Source: an uncultured Duncaniella sp. (GTDB lineage Bacteria; Bacteroidota; Bacteroidia; Bacteroidales; Muribaculaceae). Taken from it: DNA of 64,000 bases. Positions within the stretch are counted from its first letter, which is position 1; each line of letters starts with the position of its first letter. Under the pieces are notes generated by a model. That model worked only from the letters and a program-made list of their open reading frames with translations. It was not told where the DNA came from and did no database searches. Of the stretch, positions 45,357 to 63,970 are shown one piece after another. The stretch spans positions 162,172-226,171 of the forward strand of contig CAJTRI010000001.1 in assembly GCA_910578615.1 (NCBI GenBank), given 5' to 3'. Both the position numbers and the translations under genes were made by a program.

Positions 45357-45434
45357 TGGTTTTAGATAAATTAGGAAAAATTGAAATGTGATTGGACGGC
45401 ATACGGTTTGAAGGCCTGTATCCGTTCGCGATGG

Positions 45435-45464
45435 CAAAAATACACAAATTCCATTAAAATCAAA
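45435..45464 (-). promoter_or_regulatory. Candidate susC-like promoter (minus strand TTTG-N18-TAttTTTG)
   Basis: On the plus strand, CAAAAATA lies at 45435-45442 and CAAA at 45461-45464. The spacing is 1 nt short of the usual range. Confidence 0.3.
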
Positions 45465-45622
45465 AGAAACGATTAAAAAAACGAAATTTTTGAAATAGGA
45501 ATGTAATTATATAAAAAGTAGCTTTTTGGTCTTAATCGCTGTGGTACTTGTTGTTAGGTTTATTGATTATCGTATGGGTGTTTTAAAGTTATTATATACT
45601 CGGTTTTGATGATGTTTCTTTT

Positions 45623-45659
45623 GAAAGATTTCGAAAGATGGCTGGATGGGAGGAAAGAT
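45623..45659 (+). promoter_or_regulatory. Three helically phased GAAAGAT direct repeats in the susC/nuoA divergent region
   Basis: GAAAGAT occurs at 45623, 45633 and 45653, giving start-to-start spacings of 10 and 20 bp. The repeats lie 60-95 bp upstream of the nuoA -7 box. Confidence 0.3.
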
Positions 45660-45715
45660 TGCCTTGTGAGGCCGTGAATTTTTTGATTTTTTTTCCTCGT
45701 TGGAAAAATTTTGCG

Positions 45716-45723
45716 TATATTTG
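45716..45723 (+). promoter_or_regulatory. -7 box TAtaTTTG upstream of nuoA
   Basis: The sequence is gcgTATATTTGcac. The nearest proper TTTG (45682-45685) is 30 nt away, so the -33 element is poor. The predicted leader is about 100 nt and contains an 11-bp hairpin with one mismatch (GCAACAACCTG/CAGGCTGTTGC). Confidence 0.4.
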
Positions 45724-45830
45724 CACAGCGAAAAAGTACCTCTTCCTCAGCCGTTACCTATTTAGCCGCAACAACCTGTTAATATCCAGGCTGTTGCTTG
45801 TTTCTGCCAGAACACGATACAACACGAAAT

Positions 45831-46199
45831 ATGATAGCATTAGCAATTCAAAATGCAACCCTCGCGGTGGTGGCCCTTCTTACGGGTGTCGCCCTCGTGG
45901 CCGTTGCGCTTTGGCTCGCGGGGTTGATCTCACCCAGATCTTTCAACCCACAGAAGGGCGAGGCTTATGAATGTGGTATTCCCACCCGAGGAGAGTCGAT
46001 GGCTCAGTTCAAGGTGGGATATTATCTGTTTGCCATTCTCTTCCTGATGTTTGACGTCGAGACCGTCTTCCTCTACCCATGGGCTGTCAGGGTGCACGAA
46101 CTCGGCACACAGGGACTGACCGCGATCGCGGTATTTTTCGGCATCATAGTGCTGGGCCTTGTTTATGCCTGGCGGAAAGGAGCATTGGAATGGAAGTAA
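45831..46199 (+). CDS. nuoA: NADH-quinone oxidoreductase (NDH-1) subunit A
   Basis: YECGIPTRGESMAQFKVGYYLFAILFLMFDVETVFLYPWAV. The start is set at ATG 45831; the track start is a TTG. Confidence 0.9.
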   Translation: MIALAIQNATLAVVALLTGVALVAVALWLAGLISPRSFNPQKGEAYECGIPTRGESMAQFKVGYYLFAILFLMFDVETVFLYPWAVRVHELGTQGLTAIAVFFGIIVLGLVYAWRKGALEWK

Positions 46200-46798
46200 C
46201 CACACAAGGCATGCCCTACGAGGCATGGAAAGACAACGAATATATAGAGAAGCTCGTCAAGGAGCTTCAGGAGTCAGGAACCAACGTGATAGTGGGTTCG
46301 CTTGACAAACTTATCAACTGGGGGCGGTCTAACTCCATCTGGCCTCTCACTTTCGCCACCAGTTGCTGCGGCATCGAGTTCGTGTCGTTGGGCGCTGCCC
46401 GCTACGACATGGCCCGTTTCGGATGGGAAGTGGCTCGCGCCTCGCCCCGACAGGCCGACTTCATGATGGTGGCCGGCACGATCGTGCACCGAATGGTGCC
46501 TGTCTTCCGCCGCCTCTATGACCAGCTTGCCGAGCCTAAGTACGTGATTGCCTGTGGCAGTTGCGCCATCTCCGGCGGCCCGTTCAAGAAGAGCTACCAT
46601 GTGGCCATGGGCATCGAGGATATAGTCCCCGTCGATGTCTTTGTCCCCGGCTGTCCTCCGCGTCCCGAGGCCATGATATACGGCATCATGCAGCTTTCGC
46701 GCAAAATCAAGGTGGAGAAATTCTTCGGCGGCGTAAACCGTCAGGAGAGCCAGAAGGAATTTCTGGCCGCCCACCCTGTCGAGGGAGTCAACGATTAA
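46190..46798 (+). CDS. nuoB: NDH-1 subunit B
   Basis: Fe-S cluster N2 ligand motifs are present: TFATSCCGIEF, ACGSCAISGGPF and VPGCPPRPE. Confidence 0.92.
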   Translation: MEVTTQGMPYEAWKDNEYIEKLVKELQESGTNVIVGSLDKLINWGRSNSIWPLTFATSCCGIEFVSLGAARYDMARFGWEVARASPRQADFMMVAGTIVHRMVPVFRRLYDQLAEPKYVIACGSCAISGGPFKKSYHVAMGIEDIVPVDVFVPGCPPRPEAMIYGIMQLSRKIKVEKFFGGVNRQESQKEFLAAHPVEGVND

Positions 46799-46827
46799 AT
46801 TGTCCAATCATCTTCACATTATATATA

Positions 46828-48456
46828 ATGGCCAACATTCAGGAAAAAATTTCCGGAAAGTTTCCCGAAGCAGCCTTCAATCAGGCTCCGGGCGTCCTTG
46901 AAGTGAGCGTCCCCGACGCCCGCTGGCACGACCTGGCCCGCATGCTGCGCCACGAGCTGGGATTTGACTTCCTCGTCACCATCGTCGGCATGGACTGGAA
47001 GGAAGCCGGCCTCGGCTGCATCTATTATCTTGTCTCGACCAGCACGCGTGAGAACGTCGCCGTAAAGGTGATGGCCACCGGCGACCGCGAGAAGCCCTTC
47101 GTTCACTCTGTATTTGACCTTTGGGATATTGCCACCATCTACGAGCGCGAGGTCTACGACTATTTCGGCATAATCTTCGTCAACAACCCCGACATGCGCC
47201 GTCTCTTCCTCAATATAGATTGGAAGGGATATCCTCTGCGTAAGGATTATGACGCCGATCCGGCCATAAACCCTGTCTCGATAGAGAATGAACGCCAGAC
47301 CGACTTCACCGATACATGGGTGGAGCGTGACGGCAAGATTGTAAAGGAAGAGCGCCGCGTCTTCCAGCCCGAGGATTTCGTTGTCAATATCGGCCCGCAG
47401 CACCCCGCTACCCACGGCGTGCTCCGTTTCCGCACTGCGGTAGACGGCGAGATTATAAAGAAAATCGATATCTATCTCGGTTATATCCACCGTGGTGTAG
47501 AGAAAATCTGCGAGGGACTCACCTATCCCCAGACCCTTCACTTCATGGATCGTCTGGACTACTTCTCTGCCCATAACTACCACCACGGTCTCTGTCTGCT
47601 TATAGAGGAGGCTGCCGGAATAGAGATTTCGCGCCGTGCACAGGTCATCCGGGTGCTCATGGACGAGTTGTCGCGTATAGCGTCACACTGCCTGTTCATC
47701 GGTACCTATTGCATGGACCTCGGCGCCACTACCATGCTCTTTTACACCCTGCGTGTCCGTGAACAGATTCTTGACATCATGGAGCGCACATGTGGCGCAC
47801 GCATGACGTTCAACTATGACTGTATAGGCGGTGTCATGCAGGATCTCCACCCTGACTTTGTCAAGGACGTCCACGCCCTTCTCGATGTCATCCCCCGCAA
47901 CATCAAGGAATACAACAAGATATTTACCGGCAACGTCATCGCCCGTGACCGTATGGAAGGTGTCGGAACCCTCTCGCGCGAGGATGCCGTGTCATGGGCT
48001 GTCACAGGCCCCAACGGCCGTGCTTCCGGCTGGGCTTGCGATGTGCGCAAATGTGCACCTTACAGCATCTATTCAGAGCTTGACTTCGAAGAGGTCATAC
48101 GCTCCGAAGGTGACTCAATGGCCCGTTTCAAGGTGCGTCTGGACGAGATTGAACAGAGCGCCCGCATTATAGCGCAGCTTATCGACAATATACCTGACGG
48201 CGAGTATTGCGTGAAGGTTCCCAAAGTCCTCAAACTCCCTGTGGGCCACTGGTTCAAGATGGTTGAGGGATGTCGCGGCACATTCGGTCTCTATCTCGAA
48301 AGCGACGGCACCGCCAGCCCCTACCGTCTCAAAATAGCACCTCCGTGCCTTCCCGCAGCCGCAGTCGTTGACCACATCACGCGCGGACAGAAAATAGCCG
48401 ACCTTATAACCATCGGTGGCTCTATGGACTATATCGTCCCCGACATCGACAGATAA
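46828..48456 (+). CDS. nuoCD: NDH-1 fused subunits C and D
   Basis: The NuoC part reads FDFLVTIVGMDW..YEREVYDYFGIIF. The NuoD part reads NIGPQHPATHGVLR..GYIHRGVEK.. and ends IVPDIDR. The start is set at ATG 46828. Confidence 0.92.
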   Translation: MANIQEKISGKFPEAAFNQAPGVLEVSVPDARWHDLARMLRHELGFDFLVTIVGMDWKEAGLGCIYYLVSTSTRENVAVKVMATGDREKPFVHSVFDLWDIATIYEREVYDYFGIIFVNNPDMRRLFLNIDWKGYPLRKDYDADPAINPVSIENERQTDFTDTWVERDGKIVKEERRVFQPEDFVVNIGPQHPATHGVLRFRTAVDGEIIKKIDIYLGYIHRGVEKICEGLTYPQTLHFMDRLDYFSAHNYHHGLCLLIEEAAGIEISRRAQVIRVLMDELSRIASHCLFIGTYCMDLGATTMLFYTLRVREQILDIMERTCGARMTFNYDCIGGVMQDLHPDFVKDVHALLDVIPRNIKEYNKIFTGNVIARDRMEGVGTLSREDAVSWAVTGPNGRASGWACDVRKCAPYSIYSELDFEEVIRSEGDSMARFKVRLDEIEQSARIIAQLIDNIPDGEYCVKVPKVLKLPVGHWFKMVEGCRGTFGLYLESDGTASPYRLKIAPPCLPAAAVVDHITRGQKIADLITIGGSMDYIVPDIDR

Positions 48457-48515
48457 CCGGCAGTATTTCAGAAGAACAAAATAAACCATCAATCACAATA
48501 CCTTATACATAAGTT

Positions 48516-49592
48516 ATGCAAGACTTATCAGTAGGAACCGCCTGGCTGCATTCGCTCTTCCTCGGCTTCATGCCCGAGTGGGCGGCAGTCACCCTCGAAT
48601 GCCTGCTCGTCGGAGTGGGGCTGATGCTGCTCTACGCAGTCCTCGCCCTTTTCTATATCCTCTTCGAGCGTAAGGTCTGCGCCTACTTCCAGTGCCGTCT
48701 CGGCCCCAACCGTGTGGGCCCGTGGGGTCTGCTCCAAAGCGTGGCCGACATGTTCAAGATTCTCATCAAGGAGCTTATCTCGCTCAACCACATTGACAAG
48801 TTCCTGTTTGCCCTCGCGCCTTATCTCGTCATAATCGCCTCGATGCTTGCCTTCTCGGTGCTTCCGTGGGGCAACGGGTTGCAGATTGTCGACTTCAATG
48901 TGGGCATCTTCTTCCTGCTCGCCGTCAGCTCGATAGGAGTACTCGGCATCCTTCTGGCAGGATGGTCGTCAAACAATAAGTTCACCCTCATCGGCGCTCT
49001 TCGTTCGGGTGCGCAGATGGTCTCCTACGAGCTTTCTATGGGACTTTGCGTGGTCACCATGGTGGTGATTGCCGGTTCGATGAACGTCACTGACATAGTG
49101 ATGGCGCAGGAACATCTCTGGTTCATCTTCTCGGGTCATATCCCCGCCCTTATCGCCTTCGTGATCTTCATGATTGCGGGTACGGCAGAGACCAACCGAG
49201 GCCCGTTTGACCTTCCCGAGGCCGAGAGCGAGCTGACCGCCGGATACCACACCGAATACTCCGGCATACACTTCGGTTTCTTCTACCTTGCCGAATACCT
49301 CAACCTCTTTATTGTCTCCGGCGTGGCCGCTCTCCTCTTTTTCGGAGGTTGGATGCCTCTCCATATTCCCGGATTTGACGCTTTCAACCACGTGATGGAC
49401 TTTATCCCCTCGGTGGTATGGTTCATAGGCAAGGCCGTGGCCCTCTCGTTCATCATCATCTGGTTCAAGTGGACGTTCCCCCGTCTCCGCATTGACCAGC
49501 TCCTGACGCTCGAATGGAAATACCTCCTCCCCATCAATCTCTTCAACCTCGTCCTGATGGTCATCGTGGTGACCTTCGGCCTTTACCTCTAA
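48516..49592 (+). CDS. nuoH: NDH-1 subunit H
   Basis: [31 protein letters not shown], and [26 protein letters not shown]. Confidence 0.95.
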
Positions 49593-49635
49593 GAAATCCC
49601 TTTTCCCCACAACACCCCTCCTAAAATCAAGATAA

Positions 49636-51144
<1,509 letters not shown>

Positions 51145-51180
51145 TACCATCTCTCTTAACAATAACAAAAAGCACCACAG

Positions 51181-51417
51181 ATGACACTCAAGATAATCTC
51201 AGCCGAAGACATCCTCTTCCAGGGAGAAGTGACCATAGTCCGTCTCCCCGGCACCATGGGTGCCTTCACAGTCCTTCCCGGCCATGCGTCGCTCATCTCC
51301 ACCCTCACACCCGGAACCATCGGATACACCACTCCCGGCGGCTCGCAGGAAGAGATCAGGATAGGGGGCGGTATCGTGGACGTCGATTCCGACATCATCT
51401 CAGTGTGCATCTACTAA
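51181..51417 (+). CDS. atpC: F1 ATP synthase epsilon subunit, short form (beta-sandwich domain only)
   Basis: 78 aa, MTLKIISAEDILFQGEVTIVRLPGTMGAFTVLPGHASLIS... There is no C-terminal helical hairpin. Confidence 0.85.
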   Translation: MTLKIISAEDILFQGEVTIVRLPGTMGAFTVLPGHASLISTLTPGTIGYTTPGGSQEEIRIGGGIVDVDSDIISVCIY

Positions 51418-51431
51418 TCTATCCCGTCCGT

Positions 51432-52553
51432 ATGACACGTCAACTCTTCACAAAAATAGCTCTGGCGCTCATCGCCTTGCTGCTTCCCGCCATGGTGTCG
51501 GCCTCCGGCCACGACAATGGCGGAGATGCCAAGGAAGGTGTGGACGCGCAGGGTATAATCTTCGAGCATCTCGGCGATGGCTACGGCTGGGAAGTGCCCT
51601 TCAACCACCACAAGCGCATTCCTCTCCCCGTCATCGTATGGGCCGGCGACGGCCTCCACATCTTCTCTTCGTCACGTGTGGCCCACGGGCAGGTGTGGCG
51701 CGACGGCGACACCGAGTTCAAGATTGCCGGAAAGGACAGCCCCTACAAGGGCAAAGTGGTCGAGATTGTTGACGGCAAGGAGATAAAGCCTGCTCTTGAC
51801 ATCTCTGTCACCAAGAACGTCTGCGGTGTCTTCATCTCGGTACTCGTGTGCATATGGTGCATCCTTAGCGTGGCCCGCTGGCACAGAAGGGAAGGCATGA
51901 AGGCTCCCCGCAAAATGACCGGCGCGATAGAGTCGCTGATTCTTTTCGTCTATGACGGTGTCATCAAGCCAACTCTCAAAACGAAAGCCCCCAAGTTTGC
52001 GCCCTATCTGCTGACTGTCTTCTTCTTCATCCTCGTGATGAACCTTCTGGGACTCATCGTCATCTTCCCCGGCGGTGCCAACCTCACGGGCAACGTGGCA
52101 GTGACCCTCGTCCTTGCAGTCCTTACATTCTTTGTCACCAACATTTTCGCCTCCCGCCATTACTGGAAGGAGATATTCAATCCTGATGTCCCTTGGTGGC
52201 TCAAATATCCCCTGCCTATCATGCCGCTTATAGAGGTCTTCGGTATATTCACCAAGCCTGCGGCACTGACAGTCCGTCTGTTTGCCAACATGATGGGCGG
52301 CCACATGATAGTGATAGTGCTCACGCTCCTCATCTTTATCTTTGCGGCCATGGGGCCGGCCGTCAGCGGTGCCACTGCGGTGGTCTCGGTGATATTCTCG
52401 GTCTTCATGCTCTTGATCGACGTCCTTGTAAGCTTCATACAGGCCTATGTGTTCACGATGCTCTCCACCATCTTCATCGCCCTGGGGCAGGAAGAGGGTC
52501 ATGAAGGAGGCCATGCGGCCGAACATCCCGTCCCCTCTCCCGCCAAAAACTAA
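51432..52553 (+). CDS. atpB: Fo ATP synthase subunit a with a long N-terminal extension
   Basis: The C-terminal core reads TKPAALTVRLFANMMGGHMI (essential Arg context) and IQAYVFTMLSTIF. An N-terminal segment of about 120 aa with a signal-like sequence precedes the TM core. Confidence 0.88.
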   Translation: MTRQLFTKIALALIALLLPAMVSASGHDNGGDAKEGVDAQGIIFEHLGDGYGWEVPFNHHKRIPLPVIVWAGDGLHIFSSSRVAHGQVWRDGDTEFKIAGKDSPYKGKVVEIVDGKEIKPALDISVTKNVCGVFISVLVCIWCILSVARWHRREGMKAPRKMTGAIESLILFVYDGVIKPTLKTKAPKFAPYLLTVFFFILVMNLLGLIVIFPGGANLTGNVAVTLVLAVLTFFVTNIFASRHYWKEIFNPDVPWWLKYPLPIMPLIEVFGIFTKPAALTVRLFANMMGGHMIVIVLTLLIFIFAAMGPAVSGATAVVSVIFSVFMLLIDVLVSFIQAYVFTMLSTIFIALGQEEGHEGGHAAEHPVPSPAKN

Positions 52554-52598
52554 ATCAAAACAAAAAATATAAATCACCCTCTAAATTCCTTTACAACT

Positions 52599-52847
52599 AT
52601 GTTAGCAATGATCTTAGCAGCTATCGAAGGTATCCTTGGCATCGGCGTTTGCATCGGTGCAGCAATCGCAGCAATCGGCGCCGGTCTCGGCATCGGCAAA
52701 ATCGGTGGTTCAGCCATGGAGGCAATCGCCCGCCAGCCCGAATCGGCCGGTGACATCCGAAGCAACATGATCGTTATCGCAGCCCTTATCGAGGGTGTGG
52801 CCCTCTTCGCCGTTATCGTCTGCATCCTTGCAATGTTCGTAGGCTAA
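52599..52847 (+). CDS. atpE: Fo ATP synthase subunit c
   Basis: Helical hairpin with an ARQPE loop. The carboxylate lies in AALIEGVALFAV. Confidence 0.92.
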   Translation: MLAMILAAIEGILGIGVCIGAAIAAIGAGLGIGKIGGSAMEAIARQPESAGDIRSNMIVIAALIEGVALFAVIVCILAMFVG

Positions 52848-52868
52848 TCCTTTTGAGCCGTCACCGCT

Positions 52869-53366
52869 ATGGAACTATTCACGCCTGATTTCGGCCTGAT
52901 ATTCTGGATGTTCGTGTCATTCGCCATCCTCTTCCTCATCCTGTGGAAGTGGGGCTGGCCTATGATTATGAAGGGAGTGTCAGACCGAGCCGACCTCATC
53001 GACAAGGGTGTGGAGTATGCTCAAAATGCCAAAGAACAGCTTGACCATGCCCGCGAAGAGGCGGATAAATACATAGCCGACGCCCGTCGCCAGCAGGCCG
53101 AAATGCTGCGCGAGACTGACAAGATGAAAAACCAGATCATCGAGGAAGCCCGCACCGCAGCACAGATTGCCGCCAAGAAGGAGATGGACGCCGCAAAGCT
53201 CTCGATCGAACAGGAGCGCAAAGCCGCCCAGGAACAATTCCGCACCGAGGTCTCATCGTTCGCGCTCGACATCGCTCAGAAGGTCGTCCGCGGACAGCTC
53301 AAAGAGGACAAGGCGCAGGAAAAGCTCGTCAGTTCCCTGCTCGACGAGATGGAAAAAAAGAACTAA
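52869..53366 (+). CDS. atpF: Fo ATP synthase subunit b
   Basis: An N-terminal TM helix is followed by a long charged helix. The position between c and delta fits. Confidence 0.85.
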   Translation: MELFTPDFGLIFWMFVSFAILFLILWKWGWPMIMKGVSDRADLIDKGVEYAQNAKEQLDHAREEADKYIADARRQQAEMLRETDKMKNQIIEEARTAAQIAAKKEMDAAKLSIEQERKAAQEQFRTEVSSFALDIAQKVVRGQLKEDKAQEKLVSSLLDEMEKKN

Positions 53367-53391
53367 CCGCTCATAGCCTCCATTTAATTAT

Positions 53392-53940
53392 ATGAACCAA
53401 GGTCTCATCCCAAGCCGTTATGCCAAGGCCCTGATCGAGTATGCAGCCGAGAAGGGTGAGGAGAAGCGTCTTTTCGACTTCATGAAAACCCTCGCGGCCT
53501 CTTTCGAGGCCCAGCCCGGGCTAATGAAGGTCATGGCCAACCCGTTTGTCGCCCCGGCTGACAAGGAGAGGTTGCTTATGACCGCCGCCGGTGCCGTCAA
53601 TGACGCCTCTGACGGAGTCTTCACCCGTTTCACGCGGCTCCTCACCGCCAACAACCGCCTCGACCTCTCACGCGACATCGCCCTGGCCTACATGAAGCAG
53701 TATCGCCGTGACCACGCCATAAGGCTGGTGACAGTGACATCCGCCGCTCCGCTCGAGAAGACCGAGGAAGAGAGGCTGAAGAAAATCATCGCAGGCCACC
53801 TCGGAGGCGACACGATGGAGTATCGAAACTCCGTCGATCCCGATCTCATCGGTGGTTTCGTCATCACCATAGACAACGAAAAGCTCGATGCCTCCGTGGC
53901 GAACGAACTGAAACAACTGCGACTGAAACTCCTAAATTAA
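53392..53940 (+). CDS. atpH: F1 ATP synthase delta (OSCP) subunit
   Basis: 182 aa. The N-terminus reads [15 protein letters not shown]. The C-terminus reads [17 protein letters not shown]. Confidence 0.85.
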
Positions 53941-53971
53941 AACCATCCCCCTTTCAACTCAACCATTACCA

Positions 53972-55543
53972 ATGATAAACCCAAGCGAGATTTCTCAGGT
54001 ACTGAAACAACAACTCGAGAGTGTCAACTCCAAGGTATCGTTTGAAGAAACCGGCACCGTGCTCGACGTGGGCGACGGCGTGGCCCACGTCTACGGCCTC
54101 GACAACGTCTGCGCCAACGAGCTCGTTGAGTTCGAGAACGGCGTGAAGGGTGTAGCCCTCAACCTCGAGGAGAGCAACGTCGGTGTCATCCTCCTCAACA
54201 ACGTCAACAAGGTCACCGAGAACATGAGCGTGCGCCGTACAGGCCGTATTGCCTCCATCAACGTGGGAGACGGCGTCTTCGGTCGCGTCATCAACGTCTT
54301 GGGTCAGCCCATCGACGGCCGTGGCCCCATACAGGGCGACTTGCTTCCCATGCCCCTTGAACGCAAGGCTCCCGGCGTGATTTTCCGCCAGCCCGTGAAG
54401 CAGCCACTCCAGACCGGTATCAAGGCCATAGACTCAATGGTTCCCATCGGTCGCGGACAGCGCGAGCTTATCATCGGCGACCGTCAGATAGGCAAGACCG
54501 CCATCGCTATTGACACCATCATCAACCAGCGTCGCGGTTTCGAGCAGGGCAAGCCCGTCTATTGCATCTATGTGGCTATCGGGCAGAAGGCCTCTACCGT
54601 GGCCGCCATTGTGGACACCCTCCGCCAGAACGGCGCTCTTGACTATACCGTGGTCGTGGCCGCGACGGCAGCCGACTCTGCCGCCGAGCGTTACTACGCC
54701 CCGTTTGCCGGAGTCGCCATCGGAGAGTTCATCCGTGACACCGGCCGCGATGCCCTCATCATCTATGACGACCTCTCGAAGCAGGCCGTGGCCTATCGTG
54801 AGATTTCGCTCGTGCTGAAACGTCCTTCGGGCCGTGAGGCATATCCCGGCGACATCTTCTATCTCCACAGCCGCTTGCTCGAACGTGCTGCAAAGATTAT
54901 CGACAACCAGCAGGTGGCCAGTAACATGAACGACCTTCCTGACTCTCTCAAACCCATCGTCAAGGGTGGAGGATCGCTCACCGCGCTCCCCATTATCGAG
55001 ACACAGGCCGGCGACGTCTCTGCCTATATCCCCACCAACGTCATATCCATCACTGACGGACAGATATTCCTCGAAACCGCTCTCTTCAACCGAGGCATCC
55101 GTCCCGCCATCAACGTGGGTATCTCCGTGTCACGTGTGGGCGGTAGCGCACAGATCAAATCGATGAAGAAGGTGGCCGGTACCTTGAAGATAGACCAGGC
55201 ACAGTTCCGCGAGCTTGAATCGTTCACCAAGTTCGGTGGCGATATCGATGCCGTGACTGCCCGCGTCATCGACAAGGGTCGAAAGAACGAGCGTCTTCTC
55301 ATCCAGCCCCAGTACTCCCCTATGATGGTCGAGGACGAGGTTGCTGTCATCTTCTGCGGGACACGCGGCCTTCTCGCCGATGTCCCCATGGACAAGGTAA
55401 GGGAATTTGAAAAGAACTTCCTCCAACTCATGCACGCCCGTCATCCCGAGGCTATGGAGGCTATCCGTTCAGGCAACCTTGACGATGACACCGCTGCCAA
55501 GCTGACCGCTGCCGCAGCCGAGATCGCCTCCTCCTATAAATAA
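53972..55543 (+). CDS. atpA: F1 ATP synthase alpha subunit
   Basis: Walker A is GDRQIGKT, and [17 protein letters not shown] is present. Confidence 0.97.
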
Positions 55544-55558
55544 TGTAACTACACTGAA

Positions 55559-56443
55559 ATGGCAACACTACGCGAACTCAAAGGACGCATTGGCTCCGTG
55601 GCTTCGAGCGAGAAAATCACCGGGGCCATGAAGATGATTTCCTCGGCAAAGATGCATCGCGCCGAGGCCGATCTGCGCCGCTTGCTCCCTTTCAGGCAAC
55701 AGATCGAGAACATCATCGGCAACCTTCTCAGCACCGATGCCGAGTTTGAATCTCCACTGACCGAGACACGCGACGTCCGCAGCGTTGCCTTCGTGGTGCT
55801 CGGCTCTGACGACGGTCTTTGCGGAGGTTACAATATAAACATCTTCAAAGGGCTTTTACAGGGCATGGCAGACATCCGTGCACGATATGGCGAAGGTGTA
55901 GCCGTCACGATTATCCCCGTAGGACGCAAGATCGCCAAGGCTGCGGCCAAGATAGCCGGCCCGAGCGTCAGTGTGGAGACATTCGGCAACGTCAGTGCCA
56001 AGAGCGATGCGGCTGCTGTCAGAGACTTTGCCGCCGGGCTTGAAAAAGGCTTCCTTGACGGACGTTTCGACAGCGTGCAGCTCATCTACATGAACTTCCA
56101 GAGCGTGTCTCGCCAGCGTCTGCGTCGCGACACCTTCCTCCCGGTCGACTCCGCGTCGCTCTCCGCCGAAGGGGTCAGGTCGCTCTGCCGTCCGTGTATC
56201 TTCGAGCCGGACGCGTCCTCGATATTCCGTTCGGTACTCCCGATGTTCCTCCTTGCCCTCATGCAGGAAGTTTTCACCGAGAACCGCGCTTCCGAACAGG
56301 CCGCCCGCATCATGGCTATGCAGAGCGCCAACGATAACGCAAAGAACCTGCTTGAACAGTTGCAGCTCGAATACAACAAGCTGCGCCAGCAAAGCATCAC
56401 AACCGAGCTGCTCGACATTCTGGGCGGCCAGGTAAAAAACTAA
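55559..56443 (+). CDS. atpG: F1 ATP synthase gamma subunit
   Basis: MATLRELKGRIGSVASSEKITGAMKMISSAKM.., and the C-terminus reads ITTELLDILGG. Confidence 0.93.
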   Translation: MATLRELKGRIGSVASSEKITGAMKMISSAKMHRAEADLRRLLPFRQQIENIIGNLLSTDAEFESPLTETRDVRSVAFVVLGSDDGLCGGYNINIFKGLLQGMADIRARYGEGVAVTIIPVGRKIAKAAAKIAGPSVSVETFGNVSAKSDAAAVRDFAAGLEKGFLDGRFDSVQLIYMNFQSVSRQRLRRDTFLPVDSASLSAEGVRSLCRPCIFEPDASSIFRSVLPMFLLALMQEVFTENRASEQAARIMAMQSANDNAKNLLEQLQLEYNKLRQQSITTELLDILGGQVKN

Positions 56444-56464
56444 AAAAATCCAATCATTCACGAC

Positions 56465-57178
56465 ATGGGTAGTGTAAAAGAATATTTCTCCAATCTCGGC
56501 TCCGGGATAGCAAGCCTTCTCAAAGGTATGTCTGTAACCGGCAAAGAGTTTGTCACCCCGAAAATCACAGAGCAGTATCCGGACAACCGCGACGACCTTC
56601 CCGTGGCTGACCGTTTCCGTGCCATCCTCACTCTCAAATATGATGATCAGGGCAACCACAAGTGTATCGCCTGCGGCACATGCGAGCGCGTATGCCCCAA
56701 CGGTACTATAAGCCTTGACATCAAGCAGGTGGAGACATGGGACGGAAAGAAGAAAAAGAAACTTGACAAGTATATGTATGACCTGGGCTCCTGCACGTTC
56801 TGCCAGCTCTGTGTCACCAACTGCCCCACTGACGCTCTCGAATTCTCCAACGATTTCGAGCAGGCCGTCTTCACCAGGGACGTTCTTGTCAAGAAACTCA
56901 ATTATCTTCCCGAGAAAGAGGAACCCAAACCCACTCCCGAGCAGATAGCGAAGATGCAGGCCGAGAAGGAGGCTAAGATTGCAGCCGCAAAAGCCGCTGC
57001 CGCCGCCAAGAAGGCCGCGCAGGCTGCCGGAGGCGCCGCCGACACCGACCCCCTTGCAGGGATAGAGCTGAGCGATGCCCAGAAGAAAGCCCTTGCCGCA
57101 GCGGCCTCCGATCCCGAGAAACTTGAAAAGGTACGTGCGGCGATTCTTAAAGCCGCCCAGGCCCGCGCTGCGAAATAA
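56465..57178 (+). CDS. nuoI: NDH-1 subunit I (2x[4Fe-4S]) with an Ala/Lys-rich C-terminal extension of about 88 aa
   Basis: CIACGTCERVCP and CTFCQLCVTNCP. From about residue 150 the tail reads KEEPKPTPEQIAKMQAEKEAKIAAAKAAAAAKKAAQAAGG...AILKAAQARAAK. Confidence 0.9.
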   Translation: MGSVKEYFSNLGSGIASLLKGMSVTGKEFVTPKITEQYPDNRDDLPVADRFRAILTLKYDDQGNHKCIACGTCERVCPNGTISLDIKQVETWDGKKKKKLDKYMYDLGSCTFCQLCVTNCPTDALEFSNDFEQAVFTRDVLVKKLNYLPEKEEPKPTPEQIAKMQAEKEAKIAAAKAAAAAKKAAQAAGGAADTDPLAGIELSDAQKKALAAAASDPEKLEKVRAAILKAAQARAAK

Positions 57179-57229
57179 GGCCTCCTCCCCTCCACAATCC
57201 CAAGGATAATAATTACGAAAAACTCTATA

Positions 57230-57745
57230 ATGGAATCAGTAGGAAGTACAATTTGTTACTGGATAATCGCTCTGGCGATTGTCATCTTCTCGGTACTGAC
57301 TGTCACCACGCGCAAAATCCTGCGTGCGGCCACCTACCTGCTCTTCGTGCTTTTTGCCACCGCCGCCCTCTACTTCAAACTCGACTATGAGTTTCTCGGC
57401 TCGGTGCAGATTGCCGTCTATGCCGGTGGTATCGTGGTTCTCTTCGTGTTCTCGATTCTCCTGACCACGCGTCCCGGTGACAACAGCGAACAGCTCGAAT
57501 CTCGCAAGAAGGCCCTCGGCATTCTCGGCGCGCTTGCTGCGGCCGGTGCCTGCGGATGGGCTCTTTGCTCGCGCTGTGCCGACATCTTCACCTCCGCGCC
57601 GTCGATGGCCAACCCGACTATGCACGAGATCGGCAACGCCATGCTCGGAACCGGCCACGGCCAGTATCTTCTCCCCTTCGAGGCAGTCAGTGTGTTGTTA
57701 CTCGCATGTATAATCGGCGGCGTAGTCATCGCCCGCAAACGCTAA
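57230..57745 (+). CDS. nuoJ: NDH-1 subunit J
   Basis: 171 aa with 5 TM helices. Contains SVQIAVYAGGIVVLFVF. The position in the operon fits. Confidence 0.88.
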   Translation: MESVGSTICYWIIALAIVIFSVLTVTTRKILRAATYLLFVLFATAALYFKLDYEFLGSVQIAVYAGGIVVLFVFSILLTTRPGDNSEQLESRKKALGILGALAAAGACGWALCSRCADIFTSAPSMANPTMHEIGNAMLGTGHGQYLLPFEAVSVLLLACIIGGVVIARKR

Positions 57746-57760
57746 CCCCCTGCATCTGTC

Positions 57761-58072
57761 ATGGATATTACATTGATCTGGTATCTCGTCCCCGCCTTAG
57801 TGATGTTCTGCTGCGGGGTCTACGGCTTTCTTACCCGCCGCAACATGATAGCGATGCTCATCTCTCTCGAGCTGATGCTCAACGCTGTCGATATTAACTT
57901 CGTGGTCTTCAACCGTTATCTCTATCCCGGTTCTATGGAGGGCTGGATGTTCACTCTGTTCGGCATAGCCATTGCCGCCGCCGAGACCGCGCTCGCCATT
58001 GCAATCATCATCAACCTTTTCCGCGTGAGCAAGAACATTGACGTCCGCGACGCGACCCACATGAAACACTAA
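57761..58072 (+). CDS. nuoK: NDH-1 subunit K
   Basis: 103 aa with 3 TM helices. Contains MLISLELMLNAV and AAAETALAIAI. Confidence 0.92.
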   Translation: MDITLIWYLVPALVMFCCGVYGFLTRRNMIAMLISLELMLNAVDINFVVFNRYLYPGSMEGWMFTLFGIAIAAAETALAIAIIINLFRVSKNIDVRDATHMKH

Positions 58073-58081
58073 TTGCGACCT

Positions 58082-60055
58082 ATGGATATTACAATTCCTG
58101 TTCTGATACTGGCCATTCCGCTCTTCATGTTCCTCCTGTTGGGACTGGCGGGCGTAAAGATGAGCCATAAGCTGGCCGGCATTCTCGGCACGCTCGGCAT
58201 GGGCACGGTTCTCGTCCTGTCCTACTTTACGGCCTATACCTACTGGTTCTCAGGCTCCCCTGAATTTATTGACGGCACCAACCGTTTGCAGTTCACCGTG
58301 TTCAATATGGAGTGGCTTCGTTTCACCGACTTCCTCTCCATCAAGCTCGGATTTCTGCTTGATCCCATTTCGGCGCTCCTCCTCGTAGTCATCACCACCA
58401 TCTCCTTCATGGTTCATCTCTATTCGCTGGGCTACATGAAGGGCGAGAAGGGATTTCAGCGCTACTATGCGTTCCTGTCCCTTTTCAGCTTCTCGATGCT
58501 GGGACTCGTCGTTGCTACCAATATCTTCCAGATGTACATCTTCTGGGAGCTTGTGGGCGCCTCCTCCTTCCTTCTGATCGGATTCTTCTATACCCTTCCC
58601 TCAGCTGTGGCAGCTTGTAAGAAGGCGTTCATTGTCACCCGTTTCGCCGACCTCGGTTTCCTCATCGGTATCCTCATCCTGTCGTTCTACACCAACCAGC
58701 TTGACTTCCTCCCAATGACTCAGAACCCGCAGGGCGTTCTTTCAAGTTTCGGTGGTGCCACATTCATGGGAGCCTCGGTGCTCACATGGGCTTTGGTGCT
58801 TATCTTTACCGGCGGTATGGGAAAATCGGCCATGCTTCCCCTCCACATCTGGCTTCCTGACGCTATGGAAGGCCCCACCCCGGTGTCGGCCCTTATCCAT
58901 GCCGCCACCATGGTGGTTGCGGGTGTATATCTCGTGGCTCGCCTCTTCCCCCTCTACATGCTTGAAGACGCCGCCCTTACGTTCATCACTGTCGTCGGTG
59001 CCGTGACAGCCTTCTATGCCGCGTGCGTGGCCTGCGCCCAGATCGATATCAAGCGCATCCTTGCTTTCTCGACCATCTCGCAGATAGCTTTCATGATGGT
59101 GTCGCTCGGTGTCGCTGCCCGCAACGGAGAGGTCATCCACGAGGGTCTCGGCTACATGGCCTCCATGTTCCATCTTTTCACCCACGCCATGTTCAAGGCC
59201 CTTCTCTTCCTCGGTGCCGGATCGCTCATCCACGCGGTTCATTCCAACAACTACACCGCGATGGGTGGTCTTAGAAAATACATGCCCATAACCCATTGGA
59301 CGTTCCTCATCGGCTGTCTCGCCATTGCCGGCATATGGCCCTTCGCAGGATTCTTCTCCAAGGACGAGATTCTCACCGCTTGCTATGCCAACTCTCCTCT
59401 CTGGGGTGTATGGATGACGGTTGTGGCCGGAATGACGGCTTTCTACATGTTCCGCATGTACTTCCTCATCTTCTGGTGGGAAAATCCCGACTATGCCGCA
59501 CGTGTCAAGGAACAGGAAGCTCACGGCCATCATGCATCGATGCCCCATGAGTCCCCCCTTACAATGACCATACCCCTTGTCTTCCTTGCAGCCGTGTCCG
59601 TATGCTGTGGCTGGATGGTGCCTTTCGGCGAGCTTGTCACATATGACGGTCACGAATACCACATCCACATTGATTGGAGCATCGCCTCGATGAGCCTCGT
59701 GGTGGCCTTTGCCGCCATCGGTCTTGCCGCATGGCTCTATATGAAGAAAAACGACAAGCCTGCCCGCATGGCCGACTCCTGTCGCTGGCTCTGGACGGCT
59801 GCCAACCGTCGTTTCTACTGGGACGAGATCTATCTCTTTGTCACCCGCCGCATCATCTTTGACGGCATCTGCAAGCCCATCGCTTGGTTTGACCGTCACA
59901 TCATCGATGGCACCATGAACGGTCTGGCCTATGTCACCAACAGTCTCTCAGGAGCCATCAAGGGCTTCCAGAGCGGCAAGGTGCAGATGTATATCTGGTG
60001 GTATCTTGTCGGCGCAGTCGTTCTCGGTATCATCACAGCGGTATGCGTCCTTTGA
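58082..60055 (+). CDS. nuoL: NDH-1 subunit L
   Basis: Antiporter-like subunit with WLPDAMEGPTPVSALIHAATMVVAG and a C-terminal lateral-helix region. I prefer ATG 58082 over the TTG at 58073. Confidence 0.95.
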   Translation: MDITIPVLILAIPLFMFLLLGLAGVKMSHKLAGILGTLGMGTVLVLSYFTAYTYWFSGSPEFIDGTNRLQFTVFNMEWLRFTDFLSIKLGFLLDPISALLLVVITTISFMVHLYSLGYMKGEKGFQRYYAFLSLFSFSMLGLVVATNIFQMYIFWELVGASSFLLIGFFYTLPSAVAACKKAFIVTRFADLGFLIGILILSFYTNQLDFLPMTQNPQGVLSSFGGATFMGASVLTWALVLIFTGGMGKSAMLPLHIWLPDAMEGPTPVSALIHAATMVVAGVYLVARLFPLYMLEDAALTFITVVGAVTAFYAACVACAQIDIKRILAFSTISQIAFMMVSLGVAARNGEVIHEGLGYMASMFHLFTHAMFKALLFLGAGSLIHAVHSNNYTAMGGLRKYMPITHWTFLIGCLAIAGIWPFAGFFSKDEILTACYANSPLWGVWMTVVAGMTAFYMFRMYFLIFWWENPDYAARVKEQEAHGHHASMPHESPLTMTIPLVFLAAVSVCCGWMVPFGELVTYDGHEYHIHIDWSIASMSLVVAFAAIGLAAWLYMKKNDKPARMADSCRWLWTAANRRFYWDEIYLFVTRRIIFDGICKPIAWFDRHIIDGTMNGLAYVTNSLSGAIKGFQSGKVQMYIWWYLVGAVVLGIITAVCVL

Positions 60056-60085
60056 TAGTGTTAATGTAGCAAATATAGTAACGAT

Positions 60086-61582
60086 ATGTTTTCCAATATA
60101 TTAATCTACTTTGTGGTCATCCCCGTAGTGATGCTTCTGGGGCTGTTCCTCTGTCGCGACATCAAGCAGATTCGCGCAGTGGCTGTGACCGGCTCCGTGG
60201 CCTTGACCGCTCTCGCGGTGTGGGTGCTCGTCGAATATCTCGGCCTTCGGGCAGCCGACCCCGATACCCCTATGTTCTTCGTAGGTTCATGGTCGTGGTT
60301 TGCCCCGCTCAACATACACCTTGCAGTCGGTGTTGACGGTATTTCCATTGCCATGCTCCTTCTGACAGGCGTCATCATGATAACGGGCAGTTTTGCCTCT
60401 TGGGAGATTCCCCAGCCCAAGGAGTTCTTCTTGTGGCTCGTGCTTCTCGCCACAGGTGTGTATGGTTTCTTCATCTCCATCGACCTTTTCACCATGTTCA
60501 TGTTCTATGAGGTGGCCCTTATCCCCATGTACCTCCTCATAGGTGTCTGGGGTTCCGGCAACAAGAACTACTCGGCCATGAAGCTTACCCTTATGCTCAT
60601 GGGCGGTTCCGCATTCCTGATGCTCGGCCTCATCGGTATCTATTACCACTCGGCTCCTGCCGGACAGCCCCTCACATGGAACATTCTCGAAATAGTCAGC
60701 AACGACGCCATCTCTCACGGCTGGCAGACGTTCCTCTTCCCGATGACCTTTGTGGGATTCGGTGTCCTCGGCGCCATGTTCCCCTTCCATACATGGTCTC
60801 CTGACGGCCACGCCTCAGCTCCCACGGCTGTGTCGATGCTCCATGCCGGTGTCCTTATGAAGCTTGGCGGCTACGGATGCTTCCGCGTTGCCATCTATCT
60901 GATGCCCCAGGCGGCCCACGAGCTTGCGTGGATATTCATCATCCTCACCGGCATCTCCGTGGTCTATGGTGCTTTCAGCGCATGTGTGCAGAACGACCTC
61001 AAATATATCAATGCCTACTCATCCGTCAGCCACTGCGGTCTCGTGCTTTTCGCCATCCTTATGCTCAATGCCACCGCAATGACCGGCGCCATCATGCAGA
61101 TGCTTTCCCATGGTCTCATGACGGCTCTCTTCTTTGCTCTCATCGGCATGATCTACGGCCGTACACACACCCGCGATATCCGCGAGATGGGCGGTATGAT
61201 GCAGATTCTCCCTTATCTCTCCGTCTGCTACGTCATTGCCGGTATGGCCTCTCTCGGACTCCCCGGTCTCTCCGGATTCGTGGCCGAGATGACCATCTTC
61301 GTCGGCTCGTTCCAGCACACCGACCTTTTCCACCGCGTCTTCGTCATCGTGGCATGTAGCTCGATCGTGACAACGGCCGTCTACATCCTCCGCGTTGTGG
61401 GCAAGCTCCTCTACGGGCCGGTCTATGACCAGCACCATATGTCTCTTACTGACGCAAAATGGTGGGAGCGCCTCTCTACGGCCGCCCTCATTGTCTGTGT
61501 GGCAGGCATCGGTTGCTTCCCCAATTTCTTCGTTGACATCATCAAGAGCACCTGGAAGTTCTTCGGAGCTCTCAATATGTAA
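60086..61582 (+). CDS. nuoM: NDH-1 subunit M
   Basis: Antiporter-like subunit with PFHTWSPDGHASAPTAVSMLHAGVLMKLGGYG. Confidence 0.95.
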   Translation: MFSNILIYFVVIPVVMLLGLFLCRDIKQIRAVAVTGSVALTALAVWVLVEYLGLRAADPDTPMFFVGSWSWFAPLNIHLAVGVDGISIAMLLLTGVIMITGSFASWEIPQPKEFFLWLVLLATGVYGFFISIDLFTMFMFYEVALIPMYLLIGVWGSGNKNYSAMKLTLMLMGGSAFLMLGLIGIYYHSAPAGQPLTWNILEIVSNDAISHGWQTFLFPMTFVGFGVLGAMFPFHTWSPDGHASAPTAVSMLHAGVLMKLGGYGCFRVAIYLMPQAAHELAWIFIILTGISVVYGAFSACVQNDLKYINAYSSVSHCGLVLFAILMLNATAMTGAIMQMLSHGLMTALFFALIGMIYGRTHTRDIREMGGMMQILPYLSVCYVIAGMASLGLPGLSGFVAEMTIFVGSFQHTDLFHRVFVIVACSSIVTTAVYILRVVGKLLYGPVYDQHHMSLTDAKWWERLSTAALIVCVAGIGCFPNFFVDIIKSTWKFFGALNM

Positions 61583-61603
61583 TAATACCACAGAAAGAAT
61601 CCC

Positions 61604-63046
61604 ATGGATTATTCACAGTTTTTAGCAATGAAGCAGGAGATAGGGCTCCTCGTCGTATTCCTGCTCATATTCCTCTTCGATACTTTCAGTTCTCGGAAGA
61701 GCGCCAAGGCGGTTCCCGCCCTCAGCGTCTTCCTGATGGGCGTGCTCACCCTCTGGGGCTTCTGTCCTCTCAACAGTGCCGATGCCTCGGCGTTCGCCGG
61801 TATGTACGTCACCTCCCCCGTCATGACCGCCATCAAGAATATTCTCAATGTAGGTGTCCTCATCATCCTTGTACAGTCGGTCAAGTGGGCCAACTCTGAG
61901 TTTGTGGCCATCCGTCGCGGTGAATTCTACGAGCTTGTGCTCCTGACCCTCCTCGGCATGTATTTCATGATTTCGAGCCGTCACTTCCTGATGTTCATCA
62001 TCGGTCTTGAAACAGCCTCGCTCCCCCTCTGCGCCCTTGTCGCCTTTGACAAGAACCGCTATGAAAGCCATGAGGCCGCCATCAAGTATGTACTTACCGC
62101 CGTCTTCTCCTCAGCCGTGCTTCTGATGGGCCTATCGTTTGTCTACGGTCTCTGTGGAACCCTCTATTATGACGGTATCGCCATGATGTGCCGTTCACAG
62201 TTCGGCGTCATGATGGCTGTGGCTCTCGCATTCGTTATGGCCGGATTCGGATTCAAAATCTCCCTCGTCCCGTTCCATCTCTGGACTGCCGACGTCTATC
62301 AGGGTGCCCCCACTCCCGTGACCTCTTATCTTTCAGTCATCTCGAAAGGCTCTGCGGCGTTTGCCTTCCTCGTGGTTCTCACACAGGTGTTCGGCTCTCT
62401 CTATGCTGACGCATGGGAGTGGATGCTCTACGCTCTCATCATCCTGACCATCACCATCGGCAACCTCTTTGCCATGCGTCAGGTCAACATGAAGCGTTTC
62501 CTTGCCTTCTCGTCCATCTCACAGGCCGGATATATAATGCTTGCCATCATCGGCGACAACCCCATGGGAGTCTCTGCGCTCATGTTCTATGTCCTTGTCT
62601 ATGTCTTCTCCAACCTCGCCGCCTTTGGCGTGATAGGGGCTATCGAGAACGCTACCGGCAAGGTGGACATGACTGACTACAACGGCCTTTACAAGACCAA
62701 TCCCCGTCTGGCCTTCACGATGATGCTCGCCATGTTCTCTCTGGCAGGTATACCTCCCTTCGCCGGATTTTTCAGCAAGTTCTTCGTGTTCACCTCTGCC
62801 CTGAACGGCACCGGCTCGGTTGCACTCTACGTTCTTGTCCTCATAGCGTTGATCAATACCATCATCTCCCTCTACTACTATCTTCTCGTGGTCAAGGCTA
62901 TGTTCATCAACGATTCGGACAGCCCTGTGGCTACTTTCAGGTCTGCATGTTCCGAGCGTGTGGGGATGTGGATATGCGTGGCCGGTATAATCGGTCTTGG
63001 TATCGTAAGCTACTTCTATGATTATCTGCTGACCGTAGTCTACTGA
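61604..63046 (+). CDS. nuoN: NDH-1 subunit N
   Basis: Antiporter-like subunit with VPFHLWTADVYQGAPTPVTSYLSVISKGS. Confidence 0.93.
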   Translation: MDYSQFLAMKQEIGLLVVFLLIFLFDTFSSRKSAKAVPALSVFLMGVLTLWGFCPLNSADASAFAGMYVTSPVMTAIKNILNVGVLIILVQSVKWANSEFVAIRRGEFYELVLLTLLGMYFMISSRHFLMFIIGLETASLPLCALVAFDKNRYESHEAAIKYVLTAVFSSAVLLMGLSFVYGLCGTLYYDGIAMMCRSQFGVMMAVALAFVMAGFGFKISLVPFHLWTADVYQGAPTPVTSYLSVISKGSAAFAFLVVLTQVFGSLYADAWEWMLYALIILTITIGNLFAMRQVNMKRFLAFSSISQAGYIMLAIIGDNPMGVSALMFYVLVYVFSNLAAFGVIGAIENATGKVDMTDYNGLYKTNPRLAFTMMLAMFSLAGIPPFAGFFSKFFVFTSALNGTGSVALYVLVLIALINTIISLYYYLLVVKAMFINDSDSPVATFRSACSERVGMWICVAGIIGLGIVSYFYDYLLTVVY

Positions 63047-63077
63047 TAACGCACGGACACGATCAATAAAAAACATT

Positions 63078-63113
63078 GAATGAGGGGGCGGGCATGTGTG
63101 CGTCTCCTCATTC
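63078..63113 (+). terminator. Weak terminator-like hairpin after nuoN
   Basis: GAATGAGG (63078-63085) pairs with CCTCATTC (63106-63113) around a 20-nt loop. There is no T-run. Confidence 0.3.
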
Positions 63114-63154
63114 TGATATAAAAAACAAACATTCATAAAATCATATCAACCCTT

Positions 63155-63970
63155 ATGGGACCTATCGGTGTTTTTGATTCGGGCTACGGCGGCCTGACAA
63201 TCCTCCGGGAGATACGCAGAAGCCTCCCCGGATATGACTTCATGTATCTTGGCGACAATGCCCGCGCCCCTTACGGGACACGTTCTTTCGACGTTGTCTA
63301 CGAGTTCACCCTCCAAGCCGTCAAGGCTCTCTTCGAGCGTGGATGCCGGCTTGTCATCCTTGCCTGCAATACGGCTTCGGCCAAGGCTCTCCGCACCATC
63401 CAGCAGCGCGACCTTCCATCCATCGACCCTTCCCGGCGCGTTTTGGGCGTGATTGTCCCCACCATCGAGAAGCTTGGCGAGGTTTCGTCTAACGGCAATA
63501 TAGGCATTCTCGCCACTCCCGGCACTGTCTCATCCGGCACGTATGATATAGAGATAGCCAAGTTCTTTCCGCGCTTCCGCACGGTCTCGCGCGCATGTCC
63601 CATGTGGGTGCCTCTTGTGGAGAATTGCGAGCATGACGGCCCGGGTGCCGACTATTTCGTGGAGAAATATGTCAACTCACTCTTCGAGGAAGAACCTGAG
63701 ATAGACACCCTCGTCCTTGGATGCACCCATTATCCGCTCCTACTTCCCAAGATAGAGAAGGCCGTGGCCGGACGTGCCGCCATCATCACGCAGGGACGTC
63801 TTGTGGCCGACAGTCTTGCCGACTATCTGCGCCGTCATCCTGATATGGATGCCGATTGCTCCAAGGAAGGCACCGTCACATATCTGACCACCGAACATCC
63901 TGACAAGTTCACCGGGATGGCCTCCATATTCATGGAACAGCCGGTCTCGGCTTCAAGAATAGAGCTTTGA
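63155..63970 (+). CDS. murI: Glutamate racemase
   Basis: VFDSGYGGLT, ILACNTASA and LGCTHYPLL contain the two catalytic Cys motifs. Confidence 0.93.
   Translation: MGPIGVFDSGYGGLTILREIRRSLPGYDFMYLGDNARAPYGTRSFDVVYEFTLQAVKALFERGCRLVILACNTASAKALRTIQQRDLPSIDPSRRVLGVIVPTIEKLGEVSSNGNIGILATPGTVSSGTYDIEIAKFFPRFRTVSRACPMWVPLVENCEHDGPGADYFVEKYVNSLFEEEPEIDTLVLGCTHYPLLLPKIEKAVAGRAAIITQGRLVADSLADYLRRHPDMDADCSKEGTVTYLTTEHPDKFTGMASIFMEQPVSASRIEL

Follow-up and report, generated by a model that had tools for sequence, protein, structure and literature searches.

Is a complete F1Fo ATP synthase operon that sits inside the operon for the proton-pumping complex NDH-1 a real and stable arrangement, and if so, how did it arise and how is it transcribed? 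The question is raised by a stretch of 64,000 nucleotides (nt) from an uncultured Duncaniella sp. of the Muribaculaceae (assembly GCA_910578615.1, contig CAJTRI010000001.1), here called the window, meaning the whole stretch of DNA that was analysed. In it 18 open reading frames (ORFs), all on the + strand, run for 17.2 kb (45831-63046) in the order nuoA-B-CD-H, atpD-C-B-E-F-H-A-G, nuoI-J-K-L-M-N, and the atp block of 6.8 kb lies exactly between nuoH and nuoI, with nuo genes on the same strand at both sides. We suggest that the native atp operon was probably inserted once between nuoH and nuoI in the ancestor of the family, and that the resulting 18-gene unit is read from a promoter in front of nuoA and ends near a hairpin behind nuoN. 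The nested order had been named in a first-pass annotation made from the letters, and an NCBIfam scan matched the identity given there to every ORF (lengths in amino acids, aa; cutoffs are the curated cutoffs of the models):

45831..46199, + strand: nuoA, 122 aa; NCBIfam NuoA models at E = 9e-30; same gene call in independent contigs
46190..46798, + strand: nuoB, 202 aa; overlaps nuoA by 10 nt; NF011391 at 354 bits, above cutoff
46828..48456, + strand: nuoCD, fused, 542 aa; Pfam Complex1_30kDa and Complex1_49kDa, NCBIfam NuoC and NuoD
48516..49592, + strand: nuoH, 358 aa, final gene of the 5′ nuo segment; NF004741 at 336 bits, above cutoff
49639..51144, + strand: atpD, F1 beta, 501 aa; TIGR01039 at 769 bits, above cutoff; alternate-F1Fo model below cutoff
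51181..51417, + strand: atpC, F1 epsilon, 78 aa; residues 2-76 of 130 of TIGR01216; Pfam ATP-synt_DE_N only
51432..52553, + strand: atpB, Fo a subunit, 373 aa; Pfam ATP-synt_A at residues 134-349; also NCBIfam
52599..52847, + strand: atpE, Fo c subunit, 82 aa; TIGR01260 above cutoff
52869..53366, + strand: atpF, Fo b subunit, 165 aa; TIGR01144 above cutoff
53392..53940, + strand: atpH, F1 delta, 182 aa; TIGR01145 above cutoff
53972..55543, + strand: atpA, F1 alpha, 523 aa; TIGR00962 at 737 bits, above cutoff
55559..56443, + strand: atpG, F1 gamma, 294 aa, final atp gene; TIGR01146 at 234 bits, above cutoff
56465..57178, + strand: nuoI, 237 aa; TIGR01971 at residues 21-143; core for two [4Fe-4S] clusters plus a C-terminal tail
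57230..57745, + strand: nuoJ, 171 aa; NCBIfam NuoJ models
57761..58072, + strand: nuoK, 103 aa; NF004320 at 94 bits, above cutoff
58082..60055, + strand: nuoL, 657 aa; NF005141 at 599 bits, above cutoff; start taken from gene calls on independent contigs
60086..61582, + strand: nuoM, 498 aa; TIGR01972 at 404 bits, above cutoff
61604..63046, + strand: nuoN, 480 aa, final gene of the unit; TIGR01770 at 361 bits, above cutoff

NCBIfam and Pfam together find homologues of NuoA, B, C, D, H, I, J, K, L, M and N, of which NuoB, D, H, K, L, M and N each exceed the curated cutoff of at least one model and NuoA, C, I and J match only below the cutoffs. No NuoE, NuoF or NuoG was matched by NCBIfam among the ORFs of the cluster (45831-63046), and this therefore appears to be the 11-subunit NDH-1 of the type usual in Bacteroidales. 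The overlap of nuoA with nuoB, a gap of -10 nt, is conserved across relatives. The nuo genes are not uninterrupted here, as eight atp genes separate nuoH from nuoI, and these encode all eight F1Fo subunits (alpha, beta, gamma, delta, epsilon, a, b and c). Seven canonical F1Fo models are passed above cutoff (TIGR00962, TIGR01039, TIGR01146, TIGR01145, TIGR01131, TIGR01260 and TIGR01144), and all the alternate-F1Fo models stay far below theirs; epsilon, owing to its shortness, reaches 65.4 on TIGR01216, whose cutoff is 67.25. Upstream of the unit lies a SusC/SusD pair on the opposite strand, and downstream of it lies murI (63155).

An obvious concern is that two loci were wrongly joined during assembly or binning. 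The exact NuoH protein of the window was found on 21 contigs from independent samples and assemblers (metagenome-assembled genomes, MAGs, at NCBI; ENA; Logan), with the nested order in 10 out of the 10 displayed. In a species-level survey, which took one genome per species (GTDB) with NuoH as query followed by tblastn with the 18 proteins of the window, 80 loci were obtained with NuoH 79-97% identical; nuoH is followed by atpD in 76/76 of those whose contig extends past nuoH, and the full atp block and then nuoI were present in every locus long enough to reach the far end. The nested set includes a complete isolate chromosome (CP061009.1) and megabase-scale scaffolds, and the junction sequences diverge along the phylogeny as real DNA does. 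With the same order on the displayed ones of 21 independent contigs and in 76/76 informative species-level genomes, the complete chromosome among them, we consider the chance of an artefact negligible, and the worry over misassembly that accompanied the first-pass annotation can be set aside. The species-level loci are labelled Duncaniella, Muribaculaceae, Amulumruptor or Sangeribacter, or carry vaguer or wrong names. Labels that do not fit the sequence occur on public MAG records with this Muribaculaceae locus (seen with L013, L025, L041 and P0017): some stand as ‘uncultured Staphylococcus sp.’ or ‘Paenibacillus sp.’, and others as Bacteroides, Barnesiella or Porphyromonadaceae.

How far the arrangement extends was seen from more distant loci. 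A metagenome scan seeded with distant NuoH gave 80 diverse loci, of which 5 were nested (NuoH 67-76% identical) and all other scorable ones uninterrupted. Of three deep nested loci whose NuoH was looked up by name, one goes with Sangeribacter muris/Lepagella muris and another with Muribaculaceae MAGs, and a mid-depth nested locus is Muribaculum. A protein search with NuoH of the window itself returned Duncaniella matches only and no outgroups, and outgroups were collected from the representatives of 50% clusters of NuoH and from searches around them. The top representative, P0121, appears to be chimeric with an unrelated N-terminus and was left out. The nuo operon is uninterrupted, with no atp gene within 10 kb, in Prevotella sp. 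CAG:755, Alloprevotella, a Bacteroidaceae MAG and Bacteroides graminisolvens, and uninterrupted loci were likewise found in Butyricimonas, Bacteroides uniformis, B. intestinalis/cellulosilyticus, the B. ovatus group, Alistipes, Lentimicrobiaceae and Prolixibacteraceae. In total, 92 loci have nuoH then atpD and 65 have nuoH then nuoI, while 17 end too early to be scored. The survey of synteny across Bacteroidales that had been proposed with the annotation has this outcome for the loci sampled: atpD follows nuoH in the sampled Muribaculaceae, and the sampled outgroups are uninterrupted. The statement that Bacteroides thetaiotaomicron has nuo as one uninterrupted operon and atp at another place agrees with the gene calls of the outgroup loci outside the family, in which atp does not lie within 10 kb.

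In a neighbour-joining tree of concatenated NuoB, NuoCD and NuoH (1078 columns, thinned to 86 taxa for the bootstrap), the nested loci group in a single clade that contains no uninterrupted locus and was recovered in 100/100 bootstraps. This clade covers Duncaniella, Muribaculum, Sangeribacter/Lepagella and Amulumruptor, and its sister in this sample is the Bacteroides/Prevotella group. The nesting is a family-wide trait of single origin among the sampled Muribaculaceae, and the finding is more solid because it concerns a family rather than an oddity of one genome. Within the clade, distances of concatenated AtpD, AtpA and AtpG correlate with the Nuo distances (r = 0.85; 0/999 Mantel permutations as high), and the G+C content (GC, 0.55-0.57) and that of third codon positions (GC3, 0.70-0.71) are the same across the 5′ nuo, atp and 3′ nuo blocks. 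From this co-divergence and equal base composition it follows that atp and nuo have stayed together from the base of the family onward, and that the composition of atp looks native.

These observations also bear on whether the atp block could be a horizontally acquired extra ATPase of the N-type or Na+-translocating kind, with the housekeeping atp operon elsewhere in the genome. Nothing speaks positively for this, and we consider it very improbable. All eight subunits pass the canonical F1Fo equivalog cutoffs (epsilon within 2 bits), and the ‘alternate F1Fo’ models of the TIGR033xx series score far below theirs. In AtpE, aligned to the Na+-specific c ring 1yce, the residues I, G, V and F replace Q32, S66, T67 and Y70, so that the Na+-binding residues are missing and the sequence points to a c subunit of the H+ type. 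The atp genes do not differ in GC or GC3 from the nuo genes at either side, with which they co-diverge across the family, and their order is that of Bacteroides and Prevotella. For these genera the order beta-epsilon-a-c-b-delta-alpha-gamma has been described, together with two separate atp units in most Bacteroidetes (PMC5709465). The earlier impression that a whole operon was set inside another holds, in that the complete Bacteroidales-type atp order (per PMC5709465) lies exactly between nuoH and nuoI. We therefore favor a native Bacteroidales atp operon that moved into nuo, which is well supported; since no free-standing Bacteroidales atp operon was obtained for an outgroup tree, and none came from a scan of viral contigs with AtpD, the move is not proven.

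Whether the 18 genes are expressed as one unit depends on what lies at the start, at the two junctions and at the end of the string:

45716..45723, + strand: -7 box TATATTTG of the Bacteroidota type, about 107 nt upstream of the nuoA start
49593..49638, + strand: junction 1, the nuoH-atpD spacer, 46 nt, C/A-rich, without promoter box, hairpin or T-run
56444..56464, + strand: junction 2, the atpG-nuoI spacer, 21 nt, A-rich and unstructured
63078..63113, + strand: stem-loop 3′ of nuoN, a candidate transcript end, with an A-run before it and no U-run after it

The context of the box in front of nuoA, TTG-N13-TATATTTGCAC, is conserved in relatives across the family. A TAnnTTTG motif is found upstream of nuoA within 250 nt in 73/74 nested loci and within 300 nt in 74/74, at a median of 104 nt to the start codon, where the density of boxes in the window would lead one to expect about 5% by chance in such stretches. 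Within 150 nt upstream of atpD the motif occurs in 0/79 loci, and within 150 nt upstream of nuoI in 0/65. A leader of about 100 nt (45690-45830) is conserved across the family along with the promoter context, and the bases just after the nuoA box often read GCACnGCG(A/T)4-5..GC, possibly as a short stem at the 5′ end or as a site for a regulator. No Rfam family was found in 45000-64000 at E <= 1, and hence no known riboswitch or leader.

The junctions look like the inside of an operon. Folding of the two spacers of the window gives -2.4 kcal/mol (46 nt) and -3.6 kcal/mol (21 nt), no better than shuffled sequence, and no terminator-like site is present in the 21-nt atpG-nuoI gap; the description of both gaps as free of hairpin, T-run and TAnnTTTG agrees with these comparisons. 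In relatives the median gaps are 56 nt for nuoH-atpD and 43 nt for atpG-nuoI, and medians within the operons are 54 nt for nuoB-nuoCD, 48 nt for nuoCD-nuoH and 46 nt for atpB-atpE, so the junction gaps are of the same size as ordinary intra-operon gaps. At the far end, the nuoN-murI spacer (63047-63154, 108 nt) folds at -27.1 kcal/mol (z = -4.47), with 0/200 shuffles as good, and the hairpin proposed at 63078-63113 is real by this measure (z = -4.5 for the spacer). No TAnnTTTG box was found before murI (63155) in 63047-63154, and murI may be partly read through from the super-operon.

A scan with a sigma-70-type model found 24 promoter-like matches against a shuffle mean of 12.2, none of them in the junction gaps, with a model that is unfit for Bacteroidota promoters; the terminator-like matches of the same scan were about at shuffle expectation. 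We gave preference to the TAnnTTTG test. On the + strand of the region this motif occurs at two sites only, 45716-45723 upstream of nuoA and 52337-52344 inside atpB, and the statement that the only promoter-like box lies upstream of nuoA is consequently right for the intergenic gaps and wrong for the region as a whole. The box in atpB lies 255 nt upstream of atpE, the gene of the c subunit. We disfavor it as a conserved atpE promoter: only 1/71 relatives has a box within 150 nt upstream of atpE, an interval beyond which the box of the window itself falls.

By motif and by comparison the genes of the string share a strand and are closely spaced, with a single conserved promoter and without internal terminators. 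As the nuoA box is conserved, boxes at the junctions are absent and the gaps are ordinary, one primary promoter with read-through of both junctions is the simplest reading, and from sequence co-transcription of the 18 genes is likely. In the common ancestor of Muribaculaceae, its own atpDC-BEFHAG operon would have moved into the short nuoH-nuoI spacer of an 11-subunit NDH-1 operon, nuoA-B-CD-H-I-J-K-L-M-N, without nuoEFG, and the atp block appears to have lost any recognisable promoter of its own. Transcription would then start from TTG-N13-TATATTTG, about 100 nt upstream of nuoA, and pass through both unstructured junctions to near the nuoN hairpin. The products of nuoI-N would be made only after RNA polymerase had crossed 6.8 kb of atp genes, and since nuoI-N lie behind these genes, synthesis of the proton pump and of the ATP synthase would be tied to one transcriptional signal. 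The arrangement may persist at least partly as a ratchet, in that excision of atp or splitting of the unit would leave genes promoterless. Nesting may also carry a selective benefit.

The gene order could be real and the string nevertheless be read as at least three units, from non-canonical or weak promoters in the 3′ ends of nuoH and atpG, in which case there would be no true co-regulation. Internal promoters are frequent in long respiratory operons, and TAnnTTTG motifs do occur within the block, at residues 200-225 of atpG (12/68 loci) and at 52337 inside atpB. Across the loci, however, internal TAnnTTTG motifs are at background density (177 on the + strand and 206 on the - strand) and have no conserved position: none recurs in more than about 20% of loci, the commonest being those in nuoK (13/63) and in atpG. 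The contrast between 0/79 boxes before atpD and 0/65 before nuoI on one side, and 74/74 for nuoA on the other, also argues against separate units, as do the junction gaps, which are as short as those within operons and in the window are unstructured and lack a T-run. GC-rich hairpins in the nuoH-atpD spacer of 16/79 species would fit separate units, but these hairpins are without U-runs. We regard separate units as possible but unlikely. The proposal that pump and synthase form one oxidative-phosphorylation transcription unit is favored by the promoter-motif and gap comparisons, as a reading of the DNA letters only.

Some observations weigh against a single 18-gene unit in all members of the family. 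The hairpins just mentioned are absent from the window, but in the relatives that have them they could lead to attenuation or processing of the RNA, and the three segments would then not have to be equally abundant. The atpG box may give an internal start in some species. The promoter test considers the canonical -7 box only and is blind to promoters of the extracytoplasmic-function type, or to degenerate ones, inside nuoH or atpG. Since no U-run follows the hairpin behind nuoN, the position of the 3′ end is uncertain, and read-through into murI is possible. None of the loci sampled was identified as Barnesiellaceae, Tannerellaceae, Dysgonomonadaceae, Paludibacteraceae or Coprobacteraceae, and the phylogenetic boundary drawn here is therefore approximate.

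As for the junction-1 hairpins, they are seen in L015, L016, L019, L022-L025, L027, L028, L033, L041 and other loci of the survey, and the spacer of L028 consists of 183 nt of short tandem repeats (GGGTTA / CCCAAT-like). Similar hairpins are found in other gaps, for example atpF-atpH (11/33). We rejected them as conserved terminators, since they occur in only 16/79 relatives, lack U-runs, are absent from the window and have counterparts in other gaps; they might be sporadic elements of RNA stability or attenuation.

Three proteins of the unit have features of their own. The epsilon subunit of 78 aa consists of the beta-sandwich domain without the C-terminal helical domain, and the usual inhibition by the epsilon helix therefore cannot apply. 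The a subunit (atpB) is extended at its N-terminus by about 130 aa; for this part a precomputed Pfam match gives DUF8433, which our own Pfam scan did not report. NuoI carries a C-terminal tail (56915-57178) of about 85 aa, low in complexity and rich in Ala, Lys, Glu and Pro. The median length of NuoI is 232 aa (range 149-320) in 68 nested loci versus 159 aa (maximum 174) in 66 uninterrupted loci, and the tail, variable in length, is seen only in the clade of nested operons (relatives L011-L090 and L150-L166). Because the tail appears in the same lineage as the insertion, one may entertain a bolder reading in which nesting reflects physical or assembly coupling: subunits of NDH-1 and ATP synthase made from a single mRNA would be inserted side by side in the membrane, in a local proton circuit or a supercomplex, with the NuoI tail as a tether or docking arm. 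We consider this a long shot, and co-assembly of the two complexes is speculation.

If pump and synthase indeed share one promoter, the Muribaculaceae represent a natural experiment in which NDH-1 is not made without transcribing the ATP synthase genes. Fixed co-expression and polarity effects would be predicted, with subunit ratios set after transcription, by translation or RNA stability. Because the guest operon would have lost its promoter, the rearrangement would be hard to undo, and it may serve as a case of a rare rearrangement that became locked in. For the Muribaculaceae, a family that is dominant in the mouse gut and also common in other mammals, atpD directly downstream of nuoH provides a clean synteny marker. 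The nested layout reveals no new enzyme or mechanism.

Elsewhere in the window, a pyruvate:ferredoxin/flavodoxin oxidoreductase of the NifJ type (2661-6224, + strand, 1187 aa) is encoded, a likely supplier of electrons at low potential, which might be used by an NDH-1 that lacks NuoEFG. It is followed on the + strand by a PIF1/RecD-like helicase, a protein-kinase-like ORF and then four ORFs (8857-13374) without Pfam match; this segment, 6459-13374, may be a defence or mobile island. On the - strand, 13392-18788 encodes a HAD hydrolase, two CDP-alcohol phosphatidyltransferases, a PAP2 phosphatase, a GtrA-like protein and an NTP transferase, a cluster that resembles a route to the head group of a phospholipid, perhaps an inositol lipid.

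We found no published description of the nested nuo/atp layout in the open-access literature (PMC, bioRxiv). Many annotated public genomes already contain the gene calls, those of cultured Duncaniella, Muribaculum, Sangeribacter and Lepagella among them, and the layout is therefore best called annotated but unremarked. The novelty first claimed for it stands in so far as no description was found, and is reduced in that relatives are already annotated gene by gene and the trait belongs to a family rather than to one genome. The new element is the architecture, in which one operon encloses another complete one and which is conserved across an entire bacterial family; the two machines themselves are ordinary for their families. 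The 11-subunit NDH-1 operon of Bacteroidales (Bacteroides, Prevotella, Alistipes) has the same subunit set, gene order, single strand and tight spacing and no nuoE, F or G in the cluster, with NuoH 55-72% identical to the window protein, and the fused nuoCD is shared with those loci of Prevotella, Alloprevotella, Bacteroidaceae and Bacteroides graminisolvens whose gene calls were read. Here, in contrast, 6.8 kb of atp genes interrupt the operon between nuoH and nuoI, and NuoI has an extra tail of about 70-90 aa. The atp operon of the Bacteroides/Prevotella type likewise agrees in the order of its eight genes, its short epsilon and a c subunit that is H+-type by sequence, whereas the present one is not free-standing: it has no -7 box before atpD (0/79), no terminator after atpG and nuo genes on both sides.

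In E. coli, the 13-14 nuo genes and the 9 atp genes occupy distinct loci that are controlled separately, each one long polycistronic unit, with NuoEFG in NDH-1 and the atp order IBEFHAGDC. The complexes are homologous, but here the genes are nested, NuoEFG are not in the cluster and the atp order is atpDC-BEFHAG. A general parallel is that of super- or uber-operons, conserved strings of operons with linked functions such as the ribosomal str-S10-spc-alpha cluster; here, too, two operons of functionally coupled machines are joined in a conserved co-directional string. The difference is that here a complete operon is nested within another rather than placed end to end with it, and that expression of the 3′ half of the host would depend on read-through of the guest.

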